From Candidatus Nanopelagicales bacterium (GTDB lineage: Bacteria; Actinomycetota; Actinomycetes; S36-B12), in assembly GCA_030830865.1 (NCBI GenBank), contig JAURME010000119.1:10532-74531 (forward strand): a DNA stretch of 64,000 nt. The letters are read 5' to 3'. Below, piece by piece: positions 6,816 through 41,560 of the stretch. The notes beneath the pieces are model-generated. The model was not told where the DNA came from. It worked only from the letters and a program-made list of their open reading frames with translations, and did not search any database. How positions within the stretch are numbered: the stretch's first letter is position 1; each line of letters opens with the position of its first letter. The translations under genes and the position numbers were made by a program.

Positions 6816-7784
6816 ATGACGGTGACCGACCCGGTGTTCCGTGATCTCCACTCGGCTGCGACCTCGCACCGTGGCGACAGGATCTTCAACCGCACGGTCA
6901 CTGCCCTGGCCTTCACGGCCCTGCTCGTGCTTGCCGGCATCTCGATCTTCCTCGGCGCCCAGGCCGTCCCGGTCCTCGCCGAGCTCGGCCCGTCCTACCT
7001 GACCACCACGGCCTGGGATCTCACGTCCACTCCGCCGGACGTCGGCATCTGGGGGATGCTCTACGGCTCCGTCCTACTCGCCGTCATCGGTCTGCTCATC
7101 GCCGTCCCCGCCGGCCTTCTCCTCGCGGTCTTCATGGTCTTCATGGCCCCACCCAAGATCTCGAAGGCGCTCACCTCGCTGGTCGACCTCATGGCCGCCA
7201 TCCCGTCGGTGATCATCGGCCTGTGGGCGTTCTACGTGCTGACCGGTCCGGCCGTCGAGTGGCAGCAGCTTCTCAACGAGTACCTCGGCTGGATCCCGAT
7301 CTTCCAGAACACCTCGGGCAACTTCCTCGGCACGCCGTTCATCGCCGGATTCGTGCTCGCGATCATGATGATCCCGATCATCACCTCGATCTCGCGCGAG
7401 GTCCTGTCCCACACGCCCCCGGAGCTCATCAACGCCTCGGAGGCACTCGGCTGTTCCCTGTGGACCATGCTCCGCTACGTGGCGCTGCCGTACGGTCGCG
7501 GCGGCATCGTCGGCGGCATCATGCTGGGCCTGGGCCGCGCCCTGGGTGAGACCATCGCGATCTTCTTTGTCCTCAAGATCGTGTTCGAGGTCAACTGGTA
7601 CAACATCATTGAGTCCGGCGGCGGTTCCGTCGCCTCGCTGATCGTGTCGAAGTTCGGGGAGGCCAACGCCGGATTCGAGACCCAGCTCCTCCTGGCTGCC
7701 GGCTTCTTCCTGTTCCTGCTGACGCTGATCGTCAACGTCATCGCCAACCTGATCGTGTCCCGCACGGGAAGGATGCAGCGATGA
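6816..7784 (+). CDS. pstC: phosphate ABC transporter permease PstC
   Basis: Polytopic permease with the EAA-loop region ASEALGCSLWTMLRYVALPY...GRALGETIA. Confidence 0.9.
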   Translation: MTVTDPVFRDLHSAATSHRGDRIFNRTVTALAFTALLVLAGISIFLGAQAVPVLAELGPSYLTTTAWDLTSTPPDVGIWGMLYGSVLLAVIGLLIAVPAGLLLAVFMVFMAPPKISKALTSLVDLMAAIPSVIIGLWAFYVLTGPAVEWQQLLNEYLGWIPIFQNTSGNFLGTPFIAGFVLAIMMIPIITSISREVLSHTPPELINASEALGCSLWTMLRYVALPYGRGGIVGGIMLGLGRALGETIAIFFVLKIVFEVNWYNIIESGGGSVASLIVSKFGEANAGFETQLLLAAGFFLFLLTLIVNVIANLIVSRTGRMQR

Positions 7785-8860
7785 GCACCATCGTCTTCGA
7801 CAAGGAGCGTGTCTCCGAGTTGCGGAAGCAGAAGATCCAGCACCCTTGGCGCAAGCGCCCCCGCAAGTTCACGTTCAGCGTCGCGCTCGCCGTGCTCCTG
7901 CCGGCCGCCGTGGCAGCGGGCCTGCTGTTCGGCACCGACATCCCGGACCCACTGGTCATGATCCTGGTCTACCTTCCCCTGCAGCTCGTGGCTGCCGCAC
8001 TCGCGGCCATCGTGTCCAAGGGCAAGCACGGCATCGCGGACTCGATCATCTACGTGTTCGCGATCGGGGGCAGCGTCTTCTCGCTGGTGATCCTGCTGTC
8101 GCTCATCTTCACGCTGTTCGTGAACGGGCTGAAGGCGTTTAGCACCCAGTTCCTGTTTCAGAACAACGTGTACATCAGCCCCAGTACACCGCTGGATTAC
8201 GGCGGCGTCGGCCACGCGATCCTCGGCACGCTTCTCATCGTCGGCATCTCGATGCTCGTCGCGATCCCGATCGGTGTGGCCACGGCGATCTACGTCACCG
8301 AGGTCCGTGGCCGGGCGGTCCCCTACGTCCGCTTCTTCGTCCAGGCGATGTCCGGTGTCCCCTCGGTCGTCGCGGGCCTGTTCATCCTGACGGTTCTGAT
8401 CCTCACCGGTGCCCTGAGCACGAGCGCCCTCGCGGGTGGTCTGGCCTACGCGATCCTGATGCTGCCCACCGTCGCCCGCACGGCGGAGGAGGTGCTGCGC
8501 CTCATTCCCGAGGACCTGCGGACCGGTGCCCTCGCGCTCGGGTCCACCCGGGCCCGCACCGTCATGAAGGTCGTGCTGCCCGCCGCGAAGACCGGCATCG
8601 TCACGGCGATCGTCCTGGGTATGGCCCGGGTCATCGGTGAGACAGCCCCCCTGCTGCTCGTCACGGGATACAGCGACTCAACCGTGCTCAATCCGGTGTC
8701 GTCGCCCATCTCGGCTCTGCCGACGTACATCTTCGCGAACGTCGACCAGCCGTATCCCAACGCCGTCACCCGCGCGTGGGGAGCAGCCCTCGTGCTGATC
8801 ATCCTCGTCGGAATCCTGTTCGTCATCGCCCGAATCCTCGGGCGTGGCAAGGTCAAGTAG
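7781..8860 (+). CDS. pstA: phosphate ABC transporter permease PstA
   Basis: 4-nt overlap with pstC. EAA loop GALALGSTRARTVMKVVLPAAK...ARVIGETAP. Confidence 0.9.
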   Translation: MSTIVFDKERVSELRKQKIQHPWRKRPRKFTFSVALAVLLPAAVAAGLLFGTDIPDPLVMILVYLPLQLVAAALAAIVSKGKHGIADSIIYVFAIGGSVFSLVILLSLIFTLFVNGLKAFSTQFLFQNNVYISPSTPLDYGGVGHAILGTLLIVGISMLVAIPIGVATAIYVTEVRGRAVPYVRFFVQAMSGVPSVVAGLFILTVLILTGALSTSALAGGLAYAILMLPTVARTAEEVLRLIPEDLRTGALALGSTRARTVMKVVLPAAKTGIVTAIVLGMARVIGETAPLLLVTGYSDSTVLNPVSSPISALPTYIFANVDQPYPNAVTRAWGAALVLIILVGILFVIARILGRGKVK

Positions 8861-8871
8861 GGAGTCGAAGA

Positions 8872-9714
8872 ATGATGTCCACTGCAGAGTTCGACCAGAG
8901 CGTCGAGACGCTGGAGCCCTCAATGAGCGGCCGTTCGCCGGCGCTGCCCATCCAGCTGACGGCACGTGACATCTCCGTGTGGTTCGGCAAGCGCAAGGTG
9001 CTGGAGGGTGTCAACATCGACTTCCCGAAGAACACCGTCACGGCCCTGATCGGGCCGTCGGGCTGCGGCAAGTCGACCTTCATCCGCACGCTGAACCGCC
9101 TCCACGAGCTGATTCCGGGTGCAGCACTGGCCGGAGAGGTGCTCTACGAGGGCAAGGACATCTACTCGCCGGACATCGACCCCACGCACATCCGGCTGAA
9201 CATCGGCATGGTCTTCCAGAAGCCCAACCCGTTCCCGAGCATGAGCATCCGGGGCAATGTGCTGTCCGGTCTGAAGCTCTCGGGCATGAAGCGCTCGAAC
9301 CACGACGACATCGTCGAGGAGACGCTGACGGCGGCGGGCCTGTGGAACGAGGTCAAGGACCGCCTCGGTGCTCACGCCGGTGAGCTCTCCGGAGGGCAGG
9401 CGCAACGCCTCGTCATCGCCCGCGCCCTCGCTGTGCAGCCCCACGTCCTGCTCATGGACGAGCCCTGTTCGGCCCTCGACCCGGCCTCGACTCTGAAGAT
9501 CGAGGAGACGATCCGTGAGCTGTCCAAGGACATCACGGTCATCATCGTCACCCACAACATGCAGCAGGCGGTCCGCGTCTCCGACTACACCGCCTTCTTC
9601 CTCGCGGCCGAGAACGAGCCCGGCCACGTGGTGGAGCAGGGCCCGACCACCGACATCTTCAGCAACCCGAGGGACCAGCGCACGCTCGACTACGTCAACG
9701 GCCGCTTCGGTTAA
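8872..9714 (+). CDS. pstB: phosphate ABC transporter ATP-binding protein PstB
   Basis: ATG at 8872 after GGGAG, inside track ORF 8776..9714. Walker A GPSGCGKST, signature LSGGQAQRL, Walker B LLMDEPCSALD. Confidence 0.93.
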   Translation: MMSTAEFDQSVETLEPSMSGRSPALPIQLTARDISVWFGKRKVLEGVNIDFPKNTVTALIGPSGCGKSTFIRTLNRLHELIPGAALAGEVLYEGKDIYSPDIDPTHIRLNIGMVFQKPNPFPSMSIRGNVLSGLKLSGMKRSNHDDIVEETLTAAGLWNEVKDRLGAHAGELSGGQAQRLVIARALAVQPHVLLMDEPCSALDPASTLKIEETIRELSKDITVIIVTHNMQQAVRVSDYTAFFLAAENEPGHVVEQGPTTDIFSNPRDQRTLDYVNGRFG

Positions 9715-9720
9715 CCCGTC

Positions 9721-9750
9721 GTTCACCGGGTCACCCAGAGTTCACCTGAC
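9721..9750 (+). promoter_or_regulatory. PHO-box-like repeats upstream of pstS
   Basis: GTTCACCG GGTCACCCAGA GTTCACCTGAC. The last two units (9729-9739 and 9740-9750) are in exact 11-nt phase. They lie about 95 nt upstream of the pstS start. Confidence 0.5.
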
Positions 9751-9843
9751 CGTCGCGAGGACGCCGCTCAGGTGACTGCTGGGGGTCAGGATCGGCTCCT
9801 AGTTTCTGTGATGTCAGCAAGTCCCGTATCGAAGGAGAATCCT

Positions 9844-10899
9844 GTGCGACGTCTGATCGCCATCCTTTCCGGCACCGCCATCGCGGCCAGCACCGTCGCG
9901 CTCGCCGTCCCGGCCAGCGCAGCTGAGACCGTCCCCGGCGGCGGCGCGTCCTTCCCCCAGCCCTTCCTGCAGGCCTGCCTCAGCGACTTCAATGCCTCGC
10001 AGAAGAACTTCACCGTCTCGTACCAGTCGACCGGCTCCGGCACCGGCAAGAAGAACTTCACCAGCGGCCAGTTCGTGTTCGCGCAGACCGACAGCAAGTA
10101 CTCCGGTGGTGAGCCCACCTTCGGCTGGGAGTACATCCCGAACATCGGCGGCGCGGTCGCGTTTCCGATCAATCTGACCAACGCCAAGACCAAGCGCTCC
10201 CTGGGCTCCTCGATCCAGTTGAAGCAGACCACGCTGGCCAAGATCATGGGCGGCCAGATCACCTCCTGGCGCGATCCGGAGATCCTCAAGGACAACCCGC
10301 GCATCGCGTCGGCCATCCCGAACGAGAAGATCACCGTCGTCTACCGCAGCGACGCCTCGGGCACCTCGAACAACACCCTCCAGTACCTGAACGCCTGGGC
10401 ACCCACGATCTTCTCGAAGGTCCAGGACGACTTCGGCACCGCGTTCCCCGGTGGCAAGCCCCCGGCCAGCTCGCTCTCCGGCAAGGGCAACCCGGCCGTC
10501 CTGTCGAACGTCGCGGCCACCCCGGGTGCGATCGGTTACGTCGACTTCGGTGACGCCAAGGGCTACCCGTCGGCTCGCATCCAGAACGCGATGGGCGAGT
10601 TCGTCGCTCCGTCGTCTGCGTCTGCCGGCAAGAACCTCGCCAACCAGACCAACGTCGGCAGCAACGGCCTTATCACCCTCGACTACAAGGTGAAGGCCAC
10701 GGGTGCCTACCCGGTCGCCATCTTCAGCTACGGCCTCGCCCGCACGGATGGCAAGGGCCCGAACGGCCTCGGCGTCCGTCAGTTCCAGGACTACGTCCTC
10801 GCCAAGTGCGGCCCGTCCAAGGCTGCCAGCCTCGGGTACGTGCCGGTCGGCGGCAAGGTGCTCGCCAAGGCGCGCCAGCTCGTCCAGAACATCAAGTAG
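9844..10899 (+). CDS. pstS: phosphate-binding protein PstS (Sec signal peptide)
   Basis: GTG at 9844 lies 6 nt after GAAGGAG, in frame with track ORF 9772..10899. Signal peptide ...ALAVPASAAE. Phosphate-binding motifs STGSGTGKKNF and YRSDASGTSNN. Confidence 0.88.
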   Translation: MRRLIAILSGTAIAASTVALAVPASAAETVPGGGASFPQPFLQACLSDFNASQKNFTVSYQSTGSGTGKKNFTSGQFVFAQTDSKYSGGEPTFGWEYIPNIGGAVAFPINLTNAKTKRSLGSSIQLKQTTLAKIMGGQITSWRDPEILKDNPRIASAIPNEKITVVYRSDASGTSNNTLQYLNAWAPTIFSKVQDDFGTAFPGGKPPASSLSGKGNPAVLSNVAATPGAIGYVDFGDAKGYPSARIQNAMGEFVAPSSASAGKNLANQTNVGSNGLITLDYKVKATGAYPVAIFSYGLARTDGKGPNGLGVRQFQDYVLAKCGPSKAASLGYVPVGGKVLAKARQLVQNIK

Positions 10900-10946: not shown

Positions 10947-12140
10947 ATGCCTCGGTTGTCCACGCGAAACCGAGGCATCGCCCTCGCCTCGTTCGCAGCG
11001 GGAATCCCGCTGCTGCTCGCGGCCTGCACGCCCCCGATGCCGCCGGACGTCCTCGCCGCGGTGGCCGAGTCGCAGATCACGTGCCAGTCCGGTGACGTCT
11101 CGGTGGCCGTGCCTGAGGAGTTCGCGGGCAGCATGTCGGCGGTCGGGATGGCTCTCGGCGGCGTCTGCCCCGATCAGACGGTGACGGAGGTCTTCGTCGG
11201 TGACCCGGCTCCGGTCTACATCACATCGGGCACGCCCACCGCTGACGAGGTGAGCGCCTTCGCGTCCACCCAGTGCAGCGCAGGAACCCCCATCACTATC
11301 CCGGCGTTCGGCTACCAGGTCACCGCGGGCTTCAACGTGATCGGTCTCGAGGGCCTGCTCATGACCCCCGAGATCATCGCCGGCATCCTCAACGGCACCA
11401 TCACCTCCTTCGAGGATCCCCTCATCGTGGCGGCCAACGAGGGCTATGACCTCACGCTGCTCCCGGAGATCGCGGTGATGAGCCTCGATACCCCTCAGGG
11501 ATCCGTGCAGGCCATGACCGCCTGGCTGGCCCAGGAGGTCCCCGACCAGTGGACCCAGGGCGAGGTCGGCACCCTCGATATCGGGGAGAAGTTCGCCACC
11601 TCCCAGGAGCTGCTGGACGCCATGTACTCCGCCGATGCGACGTTCGCGATCCTTCCCACGTCGACTGTCGTAGCAGCCGGTCTTGCCCCGGCCAGCCTCC
11701 CGGTCCACGTGAAGAACGATGACGGCAGTGCCGGCGAGATGGTGGTCATCAGCCCGGATGACACCCAGCTGTCCAAGGTGGGCGCCGGCGCCACCACAGT
11801 CACCACCGACGAGGCGGGCAACATGATCGCCTCGGCAGCGGTCGGCGGAGTGCCGAACGCGGAGTCCTTCGACCTGGCGTCGTCCAAGGTCGTGCTGCAG
11901 GAGGGCCAAGCCGTTGCCGGTTGGCCGGTCATCGGCATGGCCCACGCCCTCGTGTGCGACACCCCCGATGATCCGCTGCCGCTGTCCTTCGCCCAGTACC
12001 TCGTGCGCCTCGCTGGCCAGGGCTCCCTCGAGGGCTACGGACTGGTGCCGCTGCCGGAGCCCATCCGCTTCGCGACCTTCACCCCGCTGAAGGTCACCGT
12101 GGATCCTGAGGCGATCCAGGACGGCGACACCGCCCGCTGA
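10947..12140 (+). CDS. lipoprotein with a divergent PstS/PBP-like (type 2 periplasmic binding) domain
   Basis: Lipobox LLLAAC. The segment LMTPEIIAGILNGTITSFEDPLIVAANEG parallels PstS LKQTTLAKIMGGQITSWRDPEILKDNP. The RSDASGT anion-binding motif is not conserved (MSLDTPQGS). Confidence 0.6.
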   Translation: MPRLSTRNRGIALASFAAGIPLLLAACTPPMPPDVLAAVAESQITCQSGDVSVAVPEEFAGSMSAVGMALGGVCPDQTVTEVFVGDPAPVYITSGTPTADEVSAFASTQCSAGTPITIPAFGYQVTAGFNVIGLEGLLMTPEIIAGILNGTITSFEDPLIVAANEGYDLTLLPEIAVMSLDTPQGSVQAMTAWLAQEVPDQWTQGEVGTLDIGEKFATSQELLDAMYSADATFAILPTSTVVAAGLAPASLPVHVKNDDGSAGEMVVISPDDTQLSKVGAGATTVTTDEAGNMIASAAVGGVPNAESFDLASSKVVLQEGQAVAGWPVIGMAHALVCDTPDDPLPLSFAQYLVRLAGQGSLEGYGLVPLPEPIRFATFTPLKVTVDPEAIQDGDTAR

Positions 12141-13076: not shown

Positions 13077-14327
13077 CTACGTGCCGGCGCCGACGAGGTC
13101 GGTGCGCTTGCCGGCGGTGGACATGAGGGGTGGCAGGCCCATGGGTCGACCGGGGATGAGGATGTTCCAGTACATCCAGCGGAAGGCGAGCTTGCCCAGG
13201 TGGTTCAGGTGGGTCTGCTTGAGCAGGCTCATCGGGCCGACACCGGCGACTGGGTACTTGCCGGGCAGTGGCTCCCAGTCGTAGTTGAAGTCGATGAGCA
13301 TGGCCTTCTTGTCGCCGGTCTCGATGAAGCAGTTGGCATGCCCGTCGAACCGGTGCGTCATCTCCTGGCCCGCGATGTACTGCAGGAAGTTCTCCACGAA
13401 GATGTCGATCTCGAAGTGCGCGACGGAACCGGCCTTGGAGGCCGGGATGTCGTTGGCGTCGCCCAGGGCGAAGATGTTGTCGTACGCCTTCGACTGCTGG
13501 GTGAACTTGTCGACCGGCACGAGGTTGATCTCGTTGCCGAGACCTGACCGGGCGACGTAGTCGGCGCCCATGTTCAACGGGATCGTCACCAGCAGGTCGA
13601 AGGGGACCTCCCGCTCGTCGTAGGAGACGAGGGCCTTCTTCTCGTTGTCGATCTCCATGAGCATGAAGTCGGGCTCGACTGCGATGCCCTTCTCGTCCAG
13701 GGTGTCGCCGAATGCCTGGGCTGCGATCGGCTTGGTGAAGGCGCCGGGCAGCGGGGTCACGTAGACCATCTCGACCCTGTCGCGCATGCCCCTCTCCTTG
13801 AAGAAGGAATCGGCGAGGAAGGAGAACTCCAGCGGTGCGACCGGGCACTTGATTGGCATCTCGACGATGTTGATGACCAGGCGACCGCCCTCCCAGTTCT
13901 CGAGCTTCTTGGCCAGCCTCACCGAGCCGTCGTAGGTGTAGAACTCGTGGACGCTGTCACCCCACTGCTCACCGAGCATGCCGTCGGTCTGCTCAGGTCG
14001 CGGGCTGACACCGGTCGCGATGATCAGGACGTCGTAGTCCAGTCGCCGGCCGTCGGTGAGCAGGACCGCGTTCTCGTCGGGCTCGACCCTGTCGATCTCT
14101 CCGTAGACCAGCGGGACGTCCTTGTTCAGGTTCGCCCGACGGCTCTTGGTGATCTGCGTCGGCGTGTATGTGCCGAAGGGCACGAACAGGTAGCCGGGCT
14201 GGTAGCGGTGGTTGTCGTCCGCATCGACGACGGTGACCTCCCAGTCGGACTCGGGCAGCTTTCTCCGCAGTTTGTTGGCCGAGATGGTTCCGGCGGTTCC
14301 CCCGCCGAGGATCAGCAACTTCTTCAT
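13077..14327 (-). CDS. FAD-dependent sulfide:quinone oxidoreductase-like protein
   Basis: ATG at 14327 (MKKLLILGGGTAGT Rossmann) preferred over the Pro/Arg-rich extension to 14387. Has SQR-type cysteines in context (PIKCPVAPLEF, GHANCFIETG), ALGDAN, and an amphipathic C-terminus. Confidence 0.8.
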   Translation of the reverse strand: MKKLLILGGGTAGTISANKLRRKLPESDWEVTVVDADDNHRYQPGYLFVPFGTYTPTQITKSRRANLNKDVPLVYGEIDRVEPDENAVLLTDGRRLDYDVLIIATGVSPRPEQTDGMLGEQWGDSVHEFYTYDGSVRLAKKLENWEGGRLVINIVEMPIKCPVAPLEFSFLADSFFKERGMRDRVEMVYVTPLPGAFTKPIAAQAFGDTLDEKGIAVEPDFMLMEIDNEKKALVSYDEREVPFDLLVTIPLNMGADYVARSGLGNEINLVPVDKFTQQSKAYDNIFALGDANDIPASKAGSVAHFEIDIFVENFLQYIAGQEMTHRFDGHANCFIETGDKKAMLIDFNYDWEPLPGKYPVAGVGPMSLLKQTHLNHLGKLAFRWMYWNILIPGRPMGLPPLMSTAGKRTDLVGAGT

Positions 14328-14390
14328 GTCACGAGCGTGACACGGGAGTGGATCCCGGTCATGGGGCCGAAGTGCGGGACTTGGCATGAC

Positions 14391-25618: not shown

Positions 25619-25909
25619 ATGAGTGATGTCGTCCTCGAGGACCTTCCGTTCGATGAACTCCGGCACAAGGCGTTCTCCTACGCCGAGCGTCACGTCGACA
25701 TCGGCTTCTTCACCGACCTGTTCTCGCACATGCCCGGCATGATCGCGATCGAGGGTGAGGGCGGCGACCTCGGTGCGATGGGTGGCACGTTCATCGAGAC
25801 CGTGCGCGCCGTCAAGCAGATGATGGGCGACGCGGACCTCGACGAGACGACCGAGACGCTGCTGCGGGCCCGGTTCGTGACGTATCTCCGCGAGCACGGC
25901 GAGGAGTGA
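25619..25909 (+). CDS. hypothetical acidic 96-aa protein
   Basis: ATG start and high GC3. I recognise no family. Confidence 0.55.
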   Translation: MSDVVLEDLPFDELRHKAFSYAERHVDIGFFTDLFSHMPGMIAIEGEGGDLGAMGGTFIETVRAVKQMMGDADLDETTETLLRARFVTYLREHGEE

Positions 25910-25935
25910 GCGGGGCTCGCTGTCGCTCACTCCTC
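25901..25935. terminator. bidirectional stem-loop between convergent genes
   Basis: GAGGAGTGAGCG (25901-25912) pairs perfectly with CGCTCACTCCTC (25924-25935), with an 11-nt loop. It spans the stop of the 96-aa ORF and abuts the NuoD-like stop. Confidence 0.6.
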
Positions 25936-25936
25936 G

Positions 25937-27061
25937 TCAGCGGTCGGCATCCCCCATCACCACCGCGAAGCTCATCACCGCATCAGCCAGCGCCACCACC
26001 GGCACTCCGACGAGAGCGGCTCCCATCGCCGACATCGTCGCGAAGGACGCCGAGCGGATCTTCATCCGCCACGGGTACTTGTCCCCAGCGCCCACCAGCA
26101 GGCAGCCGGCGATCCCGATCGGCCCCTCGACCGCCGCATAGGTCATGCCCTCGGGCAGTCGAACCACCTTCGGCAGCGGCACGTCGGTCGGTCCATCACC
26201 GAGGCTGTCGAGCCGATCGAATGAGGCGCGCGCCAACCGCACCGACAGCGGAACCTGGTCCAGCAGCGCCGCGTAGCGTGCTCGGCTGTCTCCCGCCTCG
26301 TGGACGGGCACGTCCATCAGGTCGCTGAGTTCCTCGTAGGCGAGGTACGGCTCGTCGCGGCGCAAGTCCCGTGCCACACCGCTGGCGCGTCCGACGGGGC
26401 CGCCGAGCCCGCAGCCCAGCGCCGTCGTGGCGTCCAGCACGGCGAGCCCGGCCAGGCCATCCGTCTGCGCTGCGACATCGGCCGCGACCGCAGGGAACGC
26501 CGACTCCACGTCGCCGAGCAGCTCGCGCACCAGCGTCCGGTCGTCGTCGGTGACGGGAGCCGCCACACCGCCGATCCGTGTGAACGTCGGATGCATGCGA
26601 CTGCCGGTGATCGACTCCATCGCCAAGACGATGCGCTCGCGAAGCGACTCGACCGCCGGACGCGACGCCCCCGCCACGGGAGCGAGGAACGGCAGCAGGG
26701 CACCGATGCGCTCGACCTCGAGCAGGGCCATCCGGGTCCACGTCGCACGTTCCGGGGGGAGCATCCCCAGCGCCCTCTCGGCGGCGAGGGCCACGGTCAC
26801 CTCGGAGGAGAACGATGACATCCAGTCGTGCCGGTCCGCGAGGAGCATCGCCTGCCGCAGGTCGCGCGACTCGAAGAGCTTCTCCGCGCTGCGGTGCATC
26901 AGCCCGATGCGCACGTCGGCCGAGGTGACGAGGTCGTCGGTCACGGACACCTGGAGCTGGAAGCCCGGATGGGCGGCGGGGTGCCGTGGATCAACCTCCA
27001 GGACATCGTCACAGGTCAGGAGAGCAGCTGTGCCCACGGCGAGAAGCTGCTCGGTCGGCAT
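25937..27061 (-). CDS. stand-alone NuoD/Nqo4-like protein (complex I 49-kDa subunit fold, divergent)
   Basis: ATG at 27061 inside track ORF 25937..27871. The order of motifs follows NuoD: DPRHPAAHPGFQL, IGLMHRSAEKL, ADRHDWMSSF, FTRIGGV, EGPIGIAG...YPWRMKIRSASF, and the C-terminal VVMGDADR. Confidence 0.75.
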   Translation of the reverse strand: MPTEQLLAVGTAALLTCDDVLEVDPRHPAAHPGFQLQVSVTDDLVTSADVRIGLMHRSAEKLFESRDLRQAMLLADRHDWMSSFSSEVTVALAAERALGMLPPERATWTRMALLEVERIGALLPFLAPVAGASRPAVESLRERIVLAMESITGSRMHPTFTRIGGVAAPVTDDDRTLVRELLGDVESAFPAVAADVAAQTDGLAGLAVLDATTALGCGLGGPVGRASGVARDLRRDEPYLAYEELSDLMDVPVHEAGDSRARYAALLDQVPLSVRLARASFDRLDSLGDGPTDVPLPKVVRLPEGMTYAAVEGPIGIAGCLLVGAGDKYPWRMKIRSASFATMSAMGAALVGVPVVALADAVMSFAVVMGDADR

Positions 27062-27130
27062 GCGGTCATCCTGACAGAAGCGGGGAGACTCCCGTCGCCC
27101 TCGTCTCGGTGAGCCTCTACGCTCGCGTGG

Positions 27131-28027
27131 GTGACGAGTGAACCGCAGCCGCCGCGCCTGCGTGTGGGTGTCGTGGGTGCCGGGCGCGTGGGCGCCGTCC
27201 TCGGCGCGGCCCTGCGTCGCGCGGGGCATGAGATCGTCGGGGTGTCCGCGGTCTCGGACCTCTCGCGGCTGCGCGCCGACGCACTGCTCCCCGGCGTCCC
27301 GGTGCTCCCCGCCGACGTGGTCCCCACCGACGCCGACCTCGTCCTGATCGCCGTTCCCGACGACGTACTGCCCGGCTTGGTCGCGGGACTCGTGGAGACC
27401 GGTGCCCTGCACGCAGGGCAGTTCGTGGCACATCCGTCCGGCCGCCACGGTGTCGGCGTCCTCGAGCCGGCCACGCGGGTCGGGGCTCTCGGGCTCGCGC
27501 TCCATCCGGCAATGACGTTCACCGGCACCAGCGTGGACCTCGACCGTCTGGCCGACTGTCCGTTCGCGGTGACCAGTGCGGACCCGGTGCGCCCCGTCGC
27601 TGAGGCCCTCGTCGTCGAGATGGGCGGAGAGCCGGTGTGGGTGCCGGAGGTGGCGCGGGTGGTCTATCACGCAGCCCTGTCCTATGGCGCCAACTACCTC
27701 ATGACGGTCGTGGCCCAGTCCGTCGACCTGCTGCGCCTTGCCGGCATCGACGAGCCTCAACGACTGCTGGCCCCCCTGCTGAGCGCCTCCCTCGACAACG
27801 TTCTGCGTCACGGTGACTCCGCCCTGACGGGTCCGGTCTCGCGTGGCGATGCCGCGACCGTCGCGGCCCACCTCGATGCCCTCGCGGACCAGTCACCGGT
27901 CGTCACGGACGCCTACCGGGCTCTCGCCCGGCTCACCGCCGACCGGGCCCTCGGCGCCGGGCTCATCGCGCCCGCCGATGCCGAGCGACTTCTGGATGTC
28001 CTCGCCGCCCACGGGGACCTGACATGA
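27131..28027 (+). CDS. Rossmann-like plus DUF2520 domain protein (putative oxidoreductase upstream of panC)
   Basis: GTG start. Dinucleotide-binding motif VGVVGAGRVG, with a C-terminal DUF2520-like helical region. 4-nt overlap with panC. Confidence 0.75.
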   Translation: MTSEPQPPRLRVGVVGAGRVGAVLGAALRRAGHEIVGVSAVSDLSRLRADALLPGVPVLPADVVPTDADLVLIAVPDDVLPGLVAGLVETGALHAGQFVAHPSGRHGVGVLEPATRVGALGLALHPAMTFTGTSVDLDRLADCPFAVTSADPVRPVAEALVVEMGGEPVWVPEVARVVYHAALSYGANYLMTVVAQSVDLLRLAGIDEPQRLLAPLLSASLDNVLRHGDSALTGPVSRGDAATVAAHLDALADQSPVVTDAYRALARLTADRALGAGLIAPADAERLLDVLAAHGDLT

Positions 28028-38412: not shown

Positions 38413-41292
38413 CTAGACCCGCTCCCAGATCGGCTCCGGCTCCGGACGGCCGAAGAGGTAGCCCTGGCCGCACGTCCAGCCCGCCTCCCGCAACAAGGTG
38501 GCCTGGTCGTCCGTCTCGATCCCCTCCGCGATCGGATTGAGGTTGAGTCCCCGCACCAACGACGCGATTCCGGCGACGACGTCGAGGCTGGTGCGGTCAT
38601 CGGCTCGCAGGCTCGACACGAACGAACGGTCGAGCTTCACACCGGTGAAGGGGATCCTGCGGAGCACGCCGATGGAGGCGTACCCCACGCCGAAATCGTC
38701 GAGCTCGAGCCCGAAGCCCTGTCGCCGCAGGGCCTCCAGGTTGATGACGGCCTCATCGGTCAGCGTCAGTGTCGTGGTCTCCGTCAGCTCGACCGTGATG
38801 CGCTGCGGGTCGACGCCCGCACGAGCCACCGCCCCCAGGAAGCGGTCCAGCCACCCTGAATCCGTGAGCTCGATGGCGGACACGTTGATCGAGATGGCAC
38901 CGGGCAGGTCGGGCTGGGCCGACAGGACCGCGAGAACCTGGTCGAGGACCTGGGGCCCGAGTCGGGTGATGAGTCCGGAGGACTCAAGCGCATCGATGAA
39001 GGTGATCGGGGCGCGAAGACCCTCGGACGGGTGCTGCCAGCGCACCAGCGCCTCGAACCCGGTGACCGACCGATCCGCGAGACTGACCTTCGGCTGGTAG
39101 TAGACGACGAACTGACGCTCGGTGAGGGCACCCAGCAGTTCGTCCTCCTGGCGAAGCGCCACCTCGACACCCTCGGATTGATTCTTGGCTTCGGCAAGGT
39201 GCCAACGGGATCGTCCACGCGTCTTGGCGGTGGTGAGAGCGTCATCCGCGGCGCGGAGAAGGGTCTCTGCGGTCGAGGCGGAGTCCGACACCGCGATGCC
39301 GATACTGGCCGTGCGACTGAACTTCAGCCCGCGAAAGGTGAACTCACCCGCCAGGCGGTCCAACAGGAGGCTGGCGCTGTCCGCCAGCACGTCATCGTCA
39401 TCGGTCGGCAGGGGACTGAGCACGGCAGCGAAGACGTGGCCGTCGAGACGGGCCACCTGCCACGCACCCGAGAGCTCGCCACGGACCAGATCCGCCAGTT
39501 CGGCGAGCATCTCATCCCCCGCCTGCTGCCCATGGGTGCGATTGATGACGAGGAACTCAGCGAGATCGATGAGCAGCACACCGACCTGATGACCCGGCTG
39601 GCTCAGCACCTCCCGCAGCCGGTTCATGAGCCAGCGTCGCGAATACAGGCCGGTGACCGAGTCAATGTCAACCGCCCGTTGCAGACCTTCACGTGACTCG
39701 ATGAGGGCCGTCACGTCAACGGCCTGCCGCAGGGACTGCGGCGGCAGACCCTCGATCTCGGGCATCTTGATCTCGCTTACGTCAGCCCACTTGTCGCGGC
39801 CCTGCCCCGTGACGAACCGCAGGATCATCTCGAAGTTCTCGATCTCGCCTCGTTCCAGACGCTCGTGTGCTTCGCCGTAGCGGATCCGGTCCTCCGGGCG
39901 CATGAAGGCATGTGGGCCGCCCCGGGAAATCAGTTCGTCTTGGTCGATCTCGAGGAACTCGCACATCGCGTCGTTGTAGATGCGGAAGCCGCGATCAATA
40001 TCGCCGTACCCCGTGGGTGTGGCACTGCGCTGGATCGAGGACACGAACTCCTCGCGTGTGCGCTCCGCCGCGTCCTTCGCGGCCTGCAGGGCGACGGCGT
40101 CCCTGCGCACTTCAGCGGTGACATCGGTGAGGGAGCCGTGCCACAGGCCATCGACTCCGTCCCGATGAGAGGGTGTCGCCTGCATCAGCAGCCACCGCTC
40201 GCTTCTCTCGTCATGGATCTGGAACTGGACCCGCCACGGCTCGCGACGTCGCATCGCCTGGTCCACGACCTCACGCTCTGGCTCGGGCAGGAAGTGGAGG
40301 ATCCCCACCGCCGCAGTCTCGGCCGGCGTGGGACCCAGAAGGTGCTCCACTGCGGAACTGACGAAGCGAGTCTCGACCTCGGCGTTCGGGGTGAGGAGGA
40401 GTTCGAAGAGCGCACTCGGCGCCTCATCCGCGACCGAAGCGAGGCGGAGATCCAGCTCTCGTGCCCTCTGGCGTGCGCGGAGCAGGACGACGACACCGAA
40501 CCCAGCCAGCAGCGAGAGAGCGATTCCGACGAGCGCCGTGGGGACTGCCTCGGTGCGGGAATGGCTTGTCGAAAGCGTGAGGACCCACTCCTCGGCTGGC
40601 ACTGTCAGGGTGGTGCTGTCGCGGTGCTGGAGACTCCCCTGCTCGCCGACCTCGCCGAGGATGACGTCCCCGCTGACCGCGTCAGAGACGGCAGCCGCGG
40701 TCGCTGATCCCATGAGGTACACAGTCGGGTCAAGGGTGGCAGCGTCAATGACCACGCTGACCATGCCCCAGTAGTCGCCGTCGATGATGATCGGCTCCCG
40801 GTAGATGAAGGCCTCCCCGCCTTCGATGAGCGTGACCGGCCCGAGCAGAGCGGGCGCGCCGGAGTCAATGACGGCCTTGATTCCGGGCCATTGCTCTGTC
40901 AGGTCCTCGTAGCGCAGACCCAGTGCCGCCTCGTTCCCGGCGATCGGTGCGATGAAGTCCATGCGGTTTCCCGGCGCCAGGGTGATGTTCCTCCAGTCAG
41001 GGTTATCGGAGACCAGCCTGTCCAGGTACTCCTGGGTGCCGTCAGGAGGCAATTGACCGTCGTTCACTGCCACGAACGCCGTGACGGCGTCCGCTGCCTC
41101 CGAAACGGGCACCAGCACGCCGAGGATGTTGTCCCGGATGCGCTGGCTGACCAAGGAGGCCACCTGATCCTCACGGTCTTCGGTCTCCCGGTCCACCAGA
41201 GTGGCCGCGCCGAGGGTGAGAGTGGCACCGACGAGGAAGGTCGCAGCCGCGGCGAGCCACGGGAATAGCGTCGGTGATAGCCGGCTGCGCAC
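38413..41292 (-). CDS. membrane sensor: CHASE-like periplasmic domain, PAS repeats, degenerate GGDEF and an intact EAL phosphodiesterase domain
   Basis: GTG at 41292 lies 5 nt after AGGAG; ATG at 41382 is an alternative. TM1, a CHASE-like segment (NEAALGLRYEDL...GPVTLIEGGEAFIYREPI), then TM2. The GGDEF signature reads RLDGHVF. EAL motifs EALVRW, ELTE, DDFGVGY, KLDRSF, EGIET and QGYLFGRP are intact. Confidence 0.85.
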   Translation of the reverse strand: MRSRLSPTLFPWLAAAATFLVGATLTLGAATLVDRETEDREDQVASLVSQRIRDNILGVLVPVSEAADAVTAFVAVNDGQLPPDGTQEYLDRLVSDNPDWRNITLAPGNRMDFIAPIAGNEAALGLRYEDLTEQWPGIKAVIDSGAPALLGPVTLIEGGEAFIYREPIIIDGDYWGMVSVVIDAATLDPTVYLMGSATAAAVSDAVSGDVILGEVGEQGSLQHRDSTTLTVPAEEWVLTLSTSHSRTEAVPTALVGIALSLLAGFGVVVLLRARQRARELDLRLASVADEAPSALFELLLTPNAEVETRFVSSAVEHLLGPTPAETAAVGILHFLPEPEREVVDQAMRRREPWRVQFQIHDERSERWLLMQATPSHRDGVDGLWHGSLTDVTAEVRRDAVALQAAKDAAERTREEFVSSIQRSATPTGYGDIDRGFRIYNDAMCEFLEIDQDELISRGGPHAFMRPEDRIRYGEAHERLERGEIENFEMILRFVTGQGRDKWADVSEIKMPEIEGLPPQSLRQAVDVTALIESREGLQRAVDIDSVTGLYSRRWLMNRLREVLSQPGHQVGVLLIDLAEFLVINRTHGQQAGDEMLAELADLVRGELSGAWQVARLDGHVFAAVLSPLPTDDDDVLADSASLLLDRLAGEFTFRGLKFSRTASIGIAVSDSASTAETLLRAADDALTTAKTRGRSRWHLAEAKNQSEGVEVALRQEDELLGALTERQFVVYYQPKVSLADRSVTGFEALVRWQHPSEGLRAPITFIDALESSGLITRLGPQVLDQVLAVLSAQPDLPGAISINVSAIELTDSGWLDRFLGAVARAGVDPQRITVELTETTTLTLTDEAVINLEALRRQGFGLELDDFGVGYASIGVLRRIPFTGVKLDRSFVSSLRADDRTSLDVVAGIASLVRGLNLNPIAEGIETDDQATLLREAGWTCGQGYLFGRPEPEPIWERV

Positions 41293-41560
41293 TGGCACTC
41301 CTCTGCGCGTTGACCCTGTGTGTTCCCGTCCTGTCCACGAGCGTACCCACGCTCGGTCGGCTCGTCGTCGTGAACAACCCATGCCCCACGTGGTGTGGCA
41401 GCGGGCCGGGCTCACCTGCCCGATGGCGTTCCGGAAGGGCAAGCGGTCTGGCCAGCACGCCTGGGGGCGCCGCCGGGTGCCCACCACGACGGCCAGAAGG
41501 GACCGGTCATGTTGCGCGAGTGACGAGACATAGCTCCTGTTCCACGGCTACCTTGGGCGG

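Follow-up and report, generated by a model that had tools for sequence, protein, structure and literature searches.

The 64-kb window considered here, a single stretch of genomic DNA from a Candidatus Nanopelagicales bacterium, encodes a 374-residue protein related to NuoD, the complex I subunit known as Nqo4 in Thermus thermophilus and as NDUFS2 in mitochondria. Its gene lies at 25937..27061 on the minus strand, stop codon included, and is defined by translation of the open reading frame (ORF), a match to Pfam PF00346, an AlphaFold2 (AF2) model and a Foldseek search; residue numbers below refer to this protein unless another is named. An earlier note on the same DNA, made from the sequence alone, had recognised the NuoD/Nqo4 motif order, and each motif is found where that note placed it: DPRHPAAHPGFQL spans residues 24-36, IGLMHRSAEKL residues 52-62, ADRHDWMSSF residues 75-84, FTRIGGV residues 160-166 and EGPIGIAG...YPWRMKIRSASF residues 312-340, with VVMGDADR as the C-terminal motif. 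The note went on to describe a solitary paralogue with no obvious role, possibly recruited to a new function. This picture changes once the relatives are considered, for they form a large clade marked by an RHDW motif, occupy one fixed chromosomal slot between the pan and fol genes, and keep the residues that face cluster N2 in complex I. A clade of this size, always in the same slot, argues against a singular orphan; as judged by sequence comparison, the window gene is a Nanopelagicales-type member of a large and old actinobacterial 'NuoD2' clade. The explanation favoured here, by a modest lean, is that the protein serves as the NuoD-like (Q-module) subunit of an N-module-less, 11-subunit-type complex-I-like enzyme encoded elsewhere.

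Gene, fold and family of the NuoD-like protein

An AGGA Shine-Dalgarno-like tetramer, read from the sequence at 27069..27072 (minus strand), stands 7 nucleotides 5′ of the ATG at 27061, and this ATG matches the aligned N-termini of family members; together these mark it as the start. The open frame continues further 5′ (25937-27871, minus strand, 644 codons) and crosses the DUF2520 gene on the opposite strand. Database entry P0003 (644 residues) is this long-form call, an artefact of stop-poor, GC-rich DNA, and entry P0001 is identical to the 374-residue product. A deep-branching RHDW member (L093 10001-11461) is called at 486 residues, and its roughly 100 extra N-terminal residues are either a real extension or a start over-extended in GC-rich DNA. 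The ORF is full length and uninterrupted in 81 of 81 scored family loci, 50 positions are invariant among 116 family proteins, and the ratio of nonsynonymous to synonymous substitution (dN/dS, NG86 method) is 0.24-0.42, a range similar to that of folK and panC, which indicates purifying selection on the gene.

Profile searches bear out a divergent NuoD, as the earlier note had proposed. The match to Pfam Complex1_49kDa (PF00346), the absence of which that note had named as a possible outcome, is significant (E=1.9e-39, 135.8 bits against a cut-off of 24). The NCBIfam NuoD equivalog models TIGR01962, NF004739 and NF008974 align end to end and all fall below cut-off (221/360, 196/459 and 192/522 bits), and scores this far under the thresholds indicate a divergent paralogue rather than a standard NuoD. 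The best relatives of solved structure are M. smegmatis NuoD (8e9g_D, E=1.6e-40), Thermus Nqo4 and mitochondrial NDUFS2. An AF2 model computed from the 116-sequence family alignment reaches a pLDDT of 92 and a pTM of 0.92, with its lowest confidence in segment 51-80 (pLDDT 71-75), and its top 50 Foldseek matches are exclusively NuoD/NDUFS2 chains (TM score 0.76-0.86, identity 24-28%). The model thus assigns the protein a NuoD fold.

Canonical NuoD, Nqo4 and NDUFS2 share with the window protein this predicted fold (TM score 0.8-0.86), the HRGXE, RxH..R.GG and C-terminal GDxDR motifs, and the lack of [NiFe] Cys ligands. The window protein differs from them in its 24-28% identity, its scores under every NCBIfam equivalog cut-off, the replacement of Tyr87 by Trp, a missing Asp139 loop and its location outside a nuo operon. 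It also lacks their 'SMEALIHHFKL' insertion of about 35-50 residues, as do the short 11-subunit-type NuoDs, FpoD and MbhL. The resulting deletion of about 40 residues relative to Mycobacterium and Thermus NuoD was considered as a special feature and rejected, since PRK12322, FpoD, MbhL and all 11-subunit-type representatives are likewise without the insertion.

The assignment to NuoD rather than to a hydrogenase, also made in the earlier note, agrees with the absence of [NiFe] Cys ligands from both ligand motifs of the window protein (N-terminal RxCGxC and C-terminal DPCxxC), where RHDWMSS and GDADR stand at the corresponding N- and C-terminal metal-ligand positions. The NiFeSe_hydrog model reaches only E=0.007 against a cut-off of 600 bits. 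The large subunits of group 4 [NiFe] hydrogenase-type enzymes (MbhL, MbsL, HycE) are of similar length and collinear from end to end, and 6cfw_L and 6u8y_L align in a single stretch. However, these subunits resemble the window protein far less closely than NuoD does (E 1e-19 to 1e-27, against 1e-40), and all four NiFe Cys ligands are absent from the window protein.

The clade to which the protein belongs is defined by R77-H78-D79-W80 (26822..26833, minus strand), a motif recognised by alignment to Nqo4, by invariance and in a neighbour-joining (NJ) tree. A protein search returned 657 relatives, the top 120 of which are about 374 residues long and 51-100% identical. A scan of one genome per Genome Taxonomy Database (GTDB) species found 196 loci; the best 80 of these all come from uncultured actinomycete metagenome-assembled genomes, mostly Candidatus Nanopelagicales and including the acI lineage. 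In a library-wide profile search, the family forms a continuum of about 100 clusters (50% identity) of 360-400 residues that share RHDW and HR[GS]xE, and canonical NuoDs with Tyr at the quinone position appear only from about 235 bits downward. The NJ tree of 126 sequences gathers all solitary Trp-type proteins into one clade apart from the Tyr-type NuoDs. The window protein falls inside this clade and carries both RHDW and the HRGXE Arg. Named family members are annotated 'NADH-quinone oxidoreductase subunit D' or 'subunit D-related protein'.

The chromosomal setting is equally constant. Ninety-one loci were examined, 84 of Nanopelagicales type together with loci from Nocardioidaceae, Planobispora, Luteococcus and two deep-branching members. 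In 91 of 91 the NuoD2-like gene stands alone, flanked by DUF2520-panC and DUF3180-folK, both of which lie on the other strand. The flanks comprise DUF2520-panC-nadBC-coaX on one side and DUF3180-folKBPE-ftsH on the other. In Nanopelagicales-type loci, nadB, panC and the DUF2520 gene run in one direction, the NuoD-like gene runs against them, and a gene for a 96-residue protein (p96), the DUF3180 gene and folK again run in the direction of the first three. The same slot is occupied in Nocardioidaceae (L085, L087), the cultured Planobispora siamensis (L088), the complete genome of Luteococcus sp. OSA5 (L091) and the two deep-branching members (L092, L093). For the window itself, the neighbouring ORF map agrees with the earlier description of a monocistronic gene, and, together with Pfam, confirms that it is divergent from DUF2520-panC and convergent with the 96-residue ORF. 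The window copy is ordinary for the NuoD2 family, a rather derived member of a known but unstudied kind.

An upstream methyltransferase and the residues around N2 and quinone

The most informative neighbour of NuoD2 did not feature in the earlier note, since it is present in relatives and not in the window: a methyltransferase of the MidA/NDUFAF7 family (PF02636, Methyltransf_28). A gene of this family, encoding about 300 residues, is the direct upstream neighbour on the same strand in about 55 of the 84 Nanopelagicales-type loci (for example L004 9097-9996, plus strand, with the same position in L017, L020, L029-L032 and L045-L084). The enzyme scores 60 bits against PF02636 (cut-off 23), and its family profile matches the COG1565/DUF185 structures 4f3n (3.6e-11) and 1zkd and, weakly, the Dictyostelium NDUFAF7 homologue 5ztz (E=0.05). 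The distance from the methyltransferase stop to the NuoD2 start is -13 to +46 nucleotides in 50 of 52 loci, with 11 overlaps, often of 4 or 13 nucleotides. This spacing indicates an operon, and the two genes are probably translationally coupled. The same methyltransferase family occurs in the pan-fol interval of Nocardioidaceae and Planobispora (L085, L087, L088). There, other genes stand between it and the NuoD2-like gene: two bPH_2 genes in L085 (10939-12758, minus strand), a hexapeptide acetyltransferase gene in L087 (9422-9976, plus strand), and P450, TerC and aminotransferase genes in L088 (11092-14798).

A methyltransferase gene in the window was sought and rejected; tblastn of the L004 enzyme against the 64 kb gave a best E of 0.32. 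The interval that holds the gene in most relatives corresponds here to 27062..27130, and the nearest relatives of the window likewise show just a 69-nucleotide divergent gap. The adjacent methyltransferase has been either lost or relocated in the window lineage. A covariation of Gly-to-Ser change at residue 58 with loss of the methyltransferase, as might follow if the enzyme required an 'RG' site, was also considered: with the gene there are 26 Ser and 25 Gly, without it 22 Ser and 3 Gly, one of these three being a mis-scored locus. The pattern is confounded by phylogeny and is not taken as evidence.

Residues were mapped by ungapped alignments to T. thermophilus Nqo4 (2fug_4 / 4hea) and to the 430-residue mature ovine NDUFS2 (6q9b_S2). 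The HRGXE motif, identified by alignment to NDUFS2 and by invariance, is encoded at 26882..26896 (minus strand) as H56-R57-S58-A59-E60. R57 (codon 26891-26893) corresponds to NDUFS2 Arg85 (query 20 to chain 48 of the ovine alignment) and is invariant in 116 family proteins and in 81 of 81 loci. In one methyltransferase-less Nanopelagicales clade (L037, L039, L040, L041, L043, L044) the segment reads GLLNRSVEKL, with the His of the motif changed to Asn and the Arg kept. H157 (codon 26591..26593, minus strand), in the RxH..R.GG motif, equals Nqo4 His169, the His adjacent to N2, and does not vary within the family. The G(D/E)xDR motif at the C-terminus, encoded at 25940..25954 (minus strand) as G370-D-A-D-R374, was placed by alignments, and its D371 and R374 are invariant. 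The retention of Arg57, His157 and Arg374, which surround N2 (PMC8042128), argues for continued docking on a NuoB-type partner; on sequence grounds, their invariance would make sense only with such a partner.

On the quinone side the correspondence is looser. W80 (codon 26822-26824) aligns without gaps with the quinone-binding Tyr87 of T. thermophilus Nqo4, in keeping with the earlier remark that Trp replaces the quinone-site Tyr, and both W80 and D79 are invariant in the family. H31 corresponds to Nqo4 His38; this position is His in the window protein and His, Asn, Gln or Val family-wide. Nqo4 Asp139 maps to a 3-residue segment that is absent from the window protein. Where the Nocardioidaceae and Planobispora branch retains GPQHPxTHG and an ELGA loop, the Nanopelagicales-type branch reads HPxxHPGF and no longer has the [DE]LGA loop. 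The residue map thus describes a protein with a conserved N2-facing side and a remodelled quinone-chemistry side, the remodelling being strongest in the sub-lineage of the window.

The identity of R57 with Arg85 links these residues to the methyltransferase. In NDUFS2, Arg85 lies 3.7 Å from cluster N2; the cluster requires it, NDUFAF7 dimethylates it symmetrically in mitochondria and Paracoccus, and the equivalent position is Thr in Thermus (PMC8042128, PMC3829151). Alignment places Thr at this position in M. smegmatis NuoD as well. The predicted methylation site is present in the window protein as R57. Should Thr occupy this position in the canonical NuoD of these genomes too, NuoD2 would be their only Arg-bearing NuoD-type protein and hence the only plausible NuoD-type substrate of the adjacent enzyme. 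The arrangement resembles the NDUFAF7-NDUFS2 system in that the relatives pair a PF02636 gene with a NuoD2 gene in an operon and keep the HRGXE target Arg invariant. It differs in that the actinobacterial enzyme, at about 300 residues, is very divergent, methylation of R57 is a prediction, and the window lacks the gene.

Candidate partners and competing explanations

A partner complex would have to be encoded away from the NuoD2 gene. The products of an 11-subunit operon from an actinobacterium (L089), namely NuoA, B, C, H, I, J, K, L, M and N as well as NuoD, served as tblastn queries, with positive controls. Of these, only the NuoD query matched in the window. Pfam scans of 30 further window ORFs found ordinary housekeeping genes and no nuo family, which upholds the earlier observation that the 64 kb holds no other nuo gene. 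NuoA, B, C and H-N homologues are absent from the 91 related loci as well, which places the gene outside any nuo operon.

Two known arrangements indicate where such a subunit might act. Besides nuoA-N, streptomycetes are reported to have a nuo2 operon (nuoA2, B2, H2-N2) without nuoD, and nuoD2 is encoded apart, likewise as a second NuoD-type gene of an actinomycete away from all other nuo genes (PMC8388888, PMC3765725). SCO4606-4608 are the NuoL2, M2 and N2 of this set. The earlier note had itself allowed for a nuo operon lacking nuoD, with the present gene as a relocated subunit; an arrangement of that kind is reported for Streptomyces only. The second case is an Actinomarinales-type contig (L089 8344-19338, also L090) on which nuoABCDHIJKLMN is followed by a PF02636 methyltransferase, HtpX and rhodanese genes. 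The same Actinomarinales operon is reported in bioRxiv 10.1101/2021.02.01.429150. A contig of the L089/L090 type also carries a heliorhodopsin gene, followed by one opposite-strand gene and then the nuo operon. The NuoD of this operon carries Trp (IDW) where the quinone Tyr would be, together with the HRGxE Arg, so Trp-type D subunits do work inside 11-subunit complexes. It shares with the window protein this Trp, the Arg, the short architecture and the association with a PF02636 gene. It differs from it in its operon location, GPQHPSTHG, an acidic residue in its LEIGA loop, an identity of 32% and, in the NJ tree, a position outside the RHDW clade. The methyltransferase that goes with it is no more than a distant relative of the NuoD2-linked one (28.8 against about 260 bits).

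The D-less nuo2 operon of Streptomyces, the Trp-type NuoD within the Actinomarinales operon and the invariant N2-facing residues are the grounds for leaning towards a Q-module subunit of an N-module-less enzyme encoded elsewhere. In this model, NuoD2 would dock on a NuoB-type subunit (NuoB2) carrying an N2-like cluster and would form the acceptor pocket together with a NuoH-type subunit. The methyltransferase, in loci that have it, may methylate Arg57 during assembly, by analogy with the action of NDUFAF7 on NDUFS2 Arg85. The acceptor chemistry would be unlike that of canonical complex I, given Trp in place of Tyr87 and, in the window's sub-lineage, a variable residue at the His38 position and a shortened Asp139 loop.

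Several observations pull the other way. No RHDW-clade member stands beside any other nuo gene in about 1.5 Mb of flanking sequence (91 loci, +/-10 kb). The membership of Streptomyces nuoD2 (SCO3392) in the RHDW clade and its place in the panC-to-folK slot are presumed; the window protein itself belongs to a Nanopelagicales-type branch that is more derived. In the NJ tree, the in-operon Actinomarinales NuoD is not sister to the RHDW clade. Of 90 Trp-type proteins, 79 have lost the [DE]xGA loop, and the quinone-site triad is degenerate in the window sub-lineage, where Tyr has become Trp, position 31 varies and the Asp139 loop is gone. The adjacent methyltransferase is missing from the window, its closest relatives and about one third of the loci. 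A nuoD-less nuo cluster beyond canonical nuoA-N has been reported for Streptomyces only, and a second cluster of 10 nuo genes in streamlined acI genomes (<1.5 Mb) that keep the gene would be surprising. Metabolic reconstructions of Nanopelagicales mention one NADH:quinone oxidoreductase only (PMC12817590). This single enzyme in streamlined genomes is what keeps two other explanations in play.

The stronger of these, though unlikely overall, is a NuoD fold freed from complex I that acts on its own, with or without the methyltransferase, and binds a redox-active or hydrophobic ligand in a remodelled pocket; its role may be tied to the surrounding cofactor-biosynthesis genes. Such a protein would account for a gene that is always solitary, without a nuo gene within +/-10 kb in 91 loci, for the loss of canonical quinone-site residues (Trp80, variable His31, deleted Asp139 loop) and for streamlined acI-type genomes that retain NuoD2 together with only the methyltransferase and p96. 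The extremely stable synteny with fol, pan, nad and coaX genes points the same way, but the fol, pan and nad genes form a housekeeping synteny block, and NuoD2 is encoded on the strand opposite to it. Moreover, Arg57, His157 and Arg374, relevant only to the contact with NuoB and N2, stay invariant, and the low-confidence part of the monomer model, segment 51-80 (pLDDT 71-75), is the part that complex I buries against NuoB and the quinone site. Trp at the Tyr87 position also occurs in the NuoD of a complete 11-subunit operon, and the D-less nuo2 operon of Streptomyces needs a D subunit.

A bolder form of this idea, comparably unlikely, is that NuoD2 and the MidA-like methyltransferase constitute an autonomous two-gene module outside any membrane complex, in which an Arg-methylated NuoD-fold protein with a Trp-lined pocket acts alone or with an unrecognised partner. 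If so, it would be the first NuoD/[NiFe]-large-subunit fold acting outside a complex I or hydrogenase assembly, one that Actinomycetes keep in a single slot and that even the most streamlined acI genomes from freshwater have not shed. In a milder version, the pair may be the bacterial counterpart of the NDUFAF7-NDUFS2 assembly step, operating on an unstudied N-module-less complex I.

Somewhat more doubtful is an alternative or auxiliary D subunit for canonical complex I, which would compete with or temporarily replace housekeeping NuoD on NuoB/NuoC/NuoH. It might act as an isoform with a different acceptor site or as an assembly placeholder, with Arg methylation by the MidA-like enzyme controlling its docking. 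The conserved N2-facing residues and the single NADH:quinone oxidoreductase reported in Nanopelagicales (PMC12817590) fit this idea, as does the role of NDUFAF7-dependent Arg methylation as an assembly step in mitochondria (PMC3829151, PMC8042128). However, swapping of D subunits is without precedent, an identity of 24-28% to canonical NuoD makes compatible interfaces doubtful, and the D-less nuo2 operon of Streptomyces offers a simpler partner.

A decaying relic of a lost second complex I, drifting towards a pseudogene in a methyltransferase-less lineage, is very improbable and is rejected: the loss of the adjacent methyltransferase from the window, the eroded quinone-site motifs and the replacement of HRS by NRS in one methyltransferase-less clade would suit it, but the intact full-length ORF in 81 loci, 50 invariant positions in 116 proteins, a dN/dS of 0.24-0.42 near folK and panC, the confident AF2 model and the retention of the gene in genome-streamlined lineages largely refute it.

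Surrounding features and significance

Two short intergenic regions border the gene. On the ORF map, 69 nucleotides (27062..27130) separate the NuoD2-like gene from the divergent DUF2520 gene, whose GTG is at 27131, and a promoter consensus scan found no sigma-70 consensus in this region. On the other side, a repeat search and RNA folding identified a perfect 13-bp inverted repeat with an 11-nucleotide loop at 25900..25936 (arms 25900-25912 / 25924-25936). The hairpin (-32.6 kcal/mol, z=-3.1) lies between the convergent stops of the NuoD2-like gene and p96 and overlaps the p96 stop codon. It is likely a bidirectional terminator without a T-tract; a consensus terminator scan found nothing, having missed this hairpin because it has no T run.

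The acidic 96-residue ORF p96 (25619..25909, plus strand; ORF map and synteny) begins 9 nucleotides after the DUF3180 gene, on the same strand. It matches no Pfam or NCBIfam family, and a single-sequence AF2 model gives a moderate 4-helix prediction (pLDDT 72). With 70-95% identity and a dN/dS of 0.07-0.27, it is the best-conserved gene of the neighbourhood, present in 81 of the 84 Nanopelagicales-type loci. A family hidden Markov model found no p96 beside NuoD2 in the Nocardioidaceae, Planobispora and Luteococcus loci. The co-occurrence of p96 with NuoD2, which the earlier note had suggested examining across Actinomycetota, thus holds within Nanopelagicales-like lineages and fails in the other actinomycetes, and p96 is rejected as an obligate NuoD2 partner. 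From its position and its absence from the slot elsewhere, p96 is probably a lineage-specific last gene of the fol operon rather than a partner of NuoD2.

Three further window genes deserve mention. A 397-residue ORF at 10947-12140 (plus strand) has a coding-type G+C content at third codon positions (0.89) and no Pfam match at E<=1e-5; it lies directly 3′ of a phosphate-type ATP-binding cassette transporter cluster at 6816-10899 with two permeases, an ATPase and a PBP_like_2 protein. The 436-residue protein encoded at 13077-14387 (minus strand) matches Pyr_redox_2 only in its N-terminal part (residues 23-146). It could be an FprA-like or NDH-2-like flavoprotein and is the sole other candidate respiratory or redox enzyme noticed in the window. 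A 1024-residue CHASE-GGDEF-EAL signalling protein is encoded at 38413-41487 (minus strand), downstream of a fatty-acid desaturase and of TetR and MarR regulators.

The picture of an orphan gives way to that of a gene widespread among actinobacteria, which is annotated as NuoD or 'NuoD-related' and is presumably the nuoD2 of Streptomyces. No function has been published for proteins of the window type or for Streptomyces NuoD2. The family occupies one place in the chromosome throughout the Actinomycetes, from Streptosporangiales to the freshwater acI lineage with its streamlined genomes, and always carries Trp in place of the quinone-protonating Tyr while retaining the N2-facing residues. The points of wider interest are the family-level link to an NDUFAF7-like methyltransferase and this invariant Trp. 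The usual pairing with a MidA/NDUFAF7-family enzyme provides independent genomic support for an enzyme-substrate pair known from mitochondria. Two questions thereby become testable in bacteria: the effect of methylating the Arg next to N2, and the identity of the electron acceptor of the N-module-less 'Nuo2' enzyme in actinomycetes.

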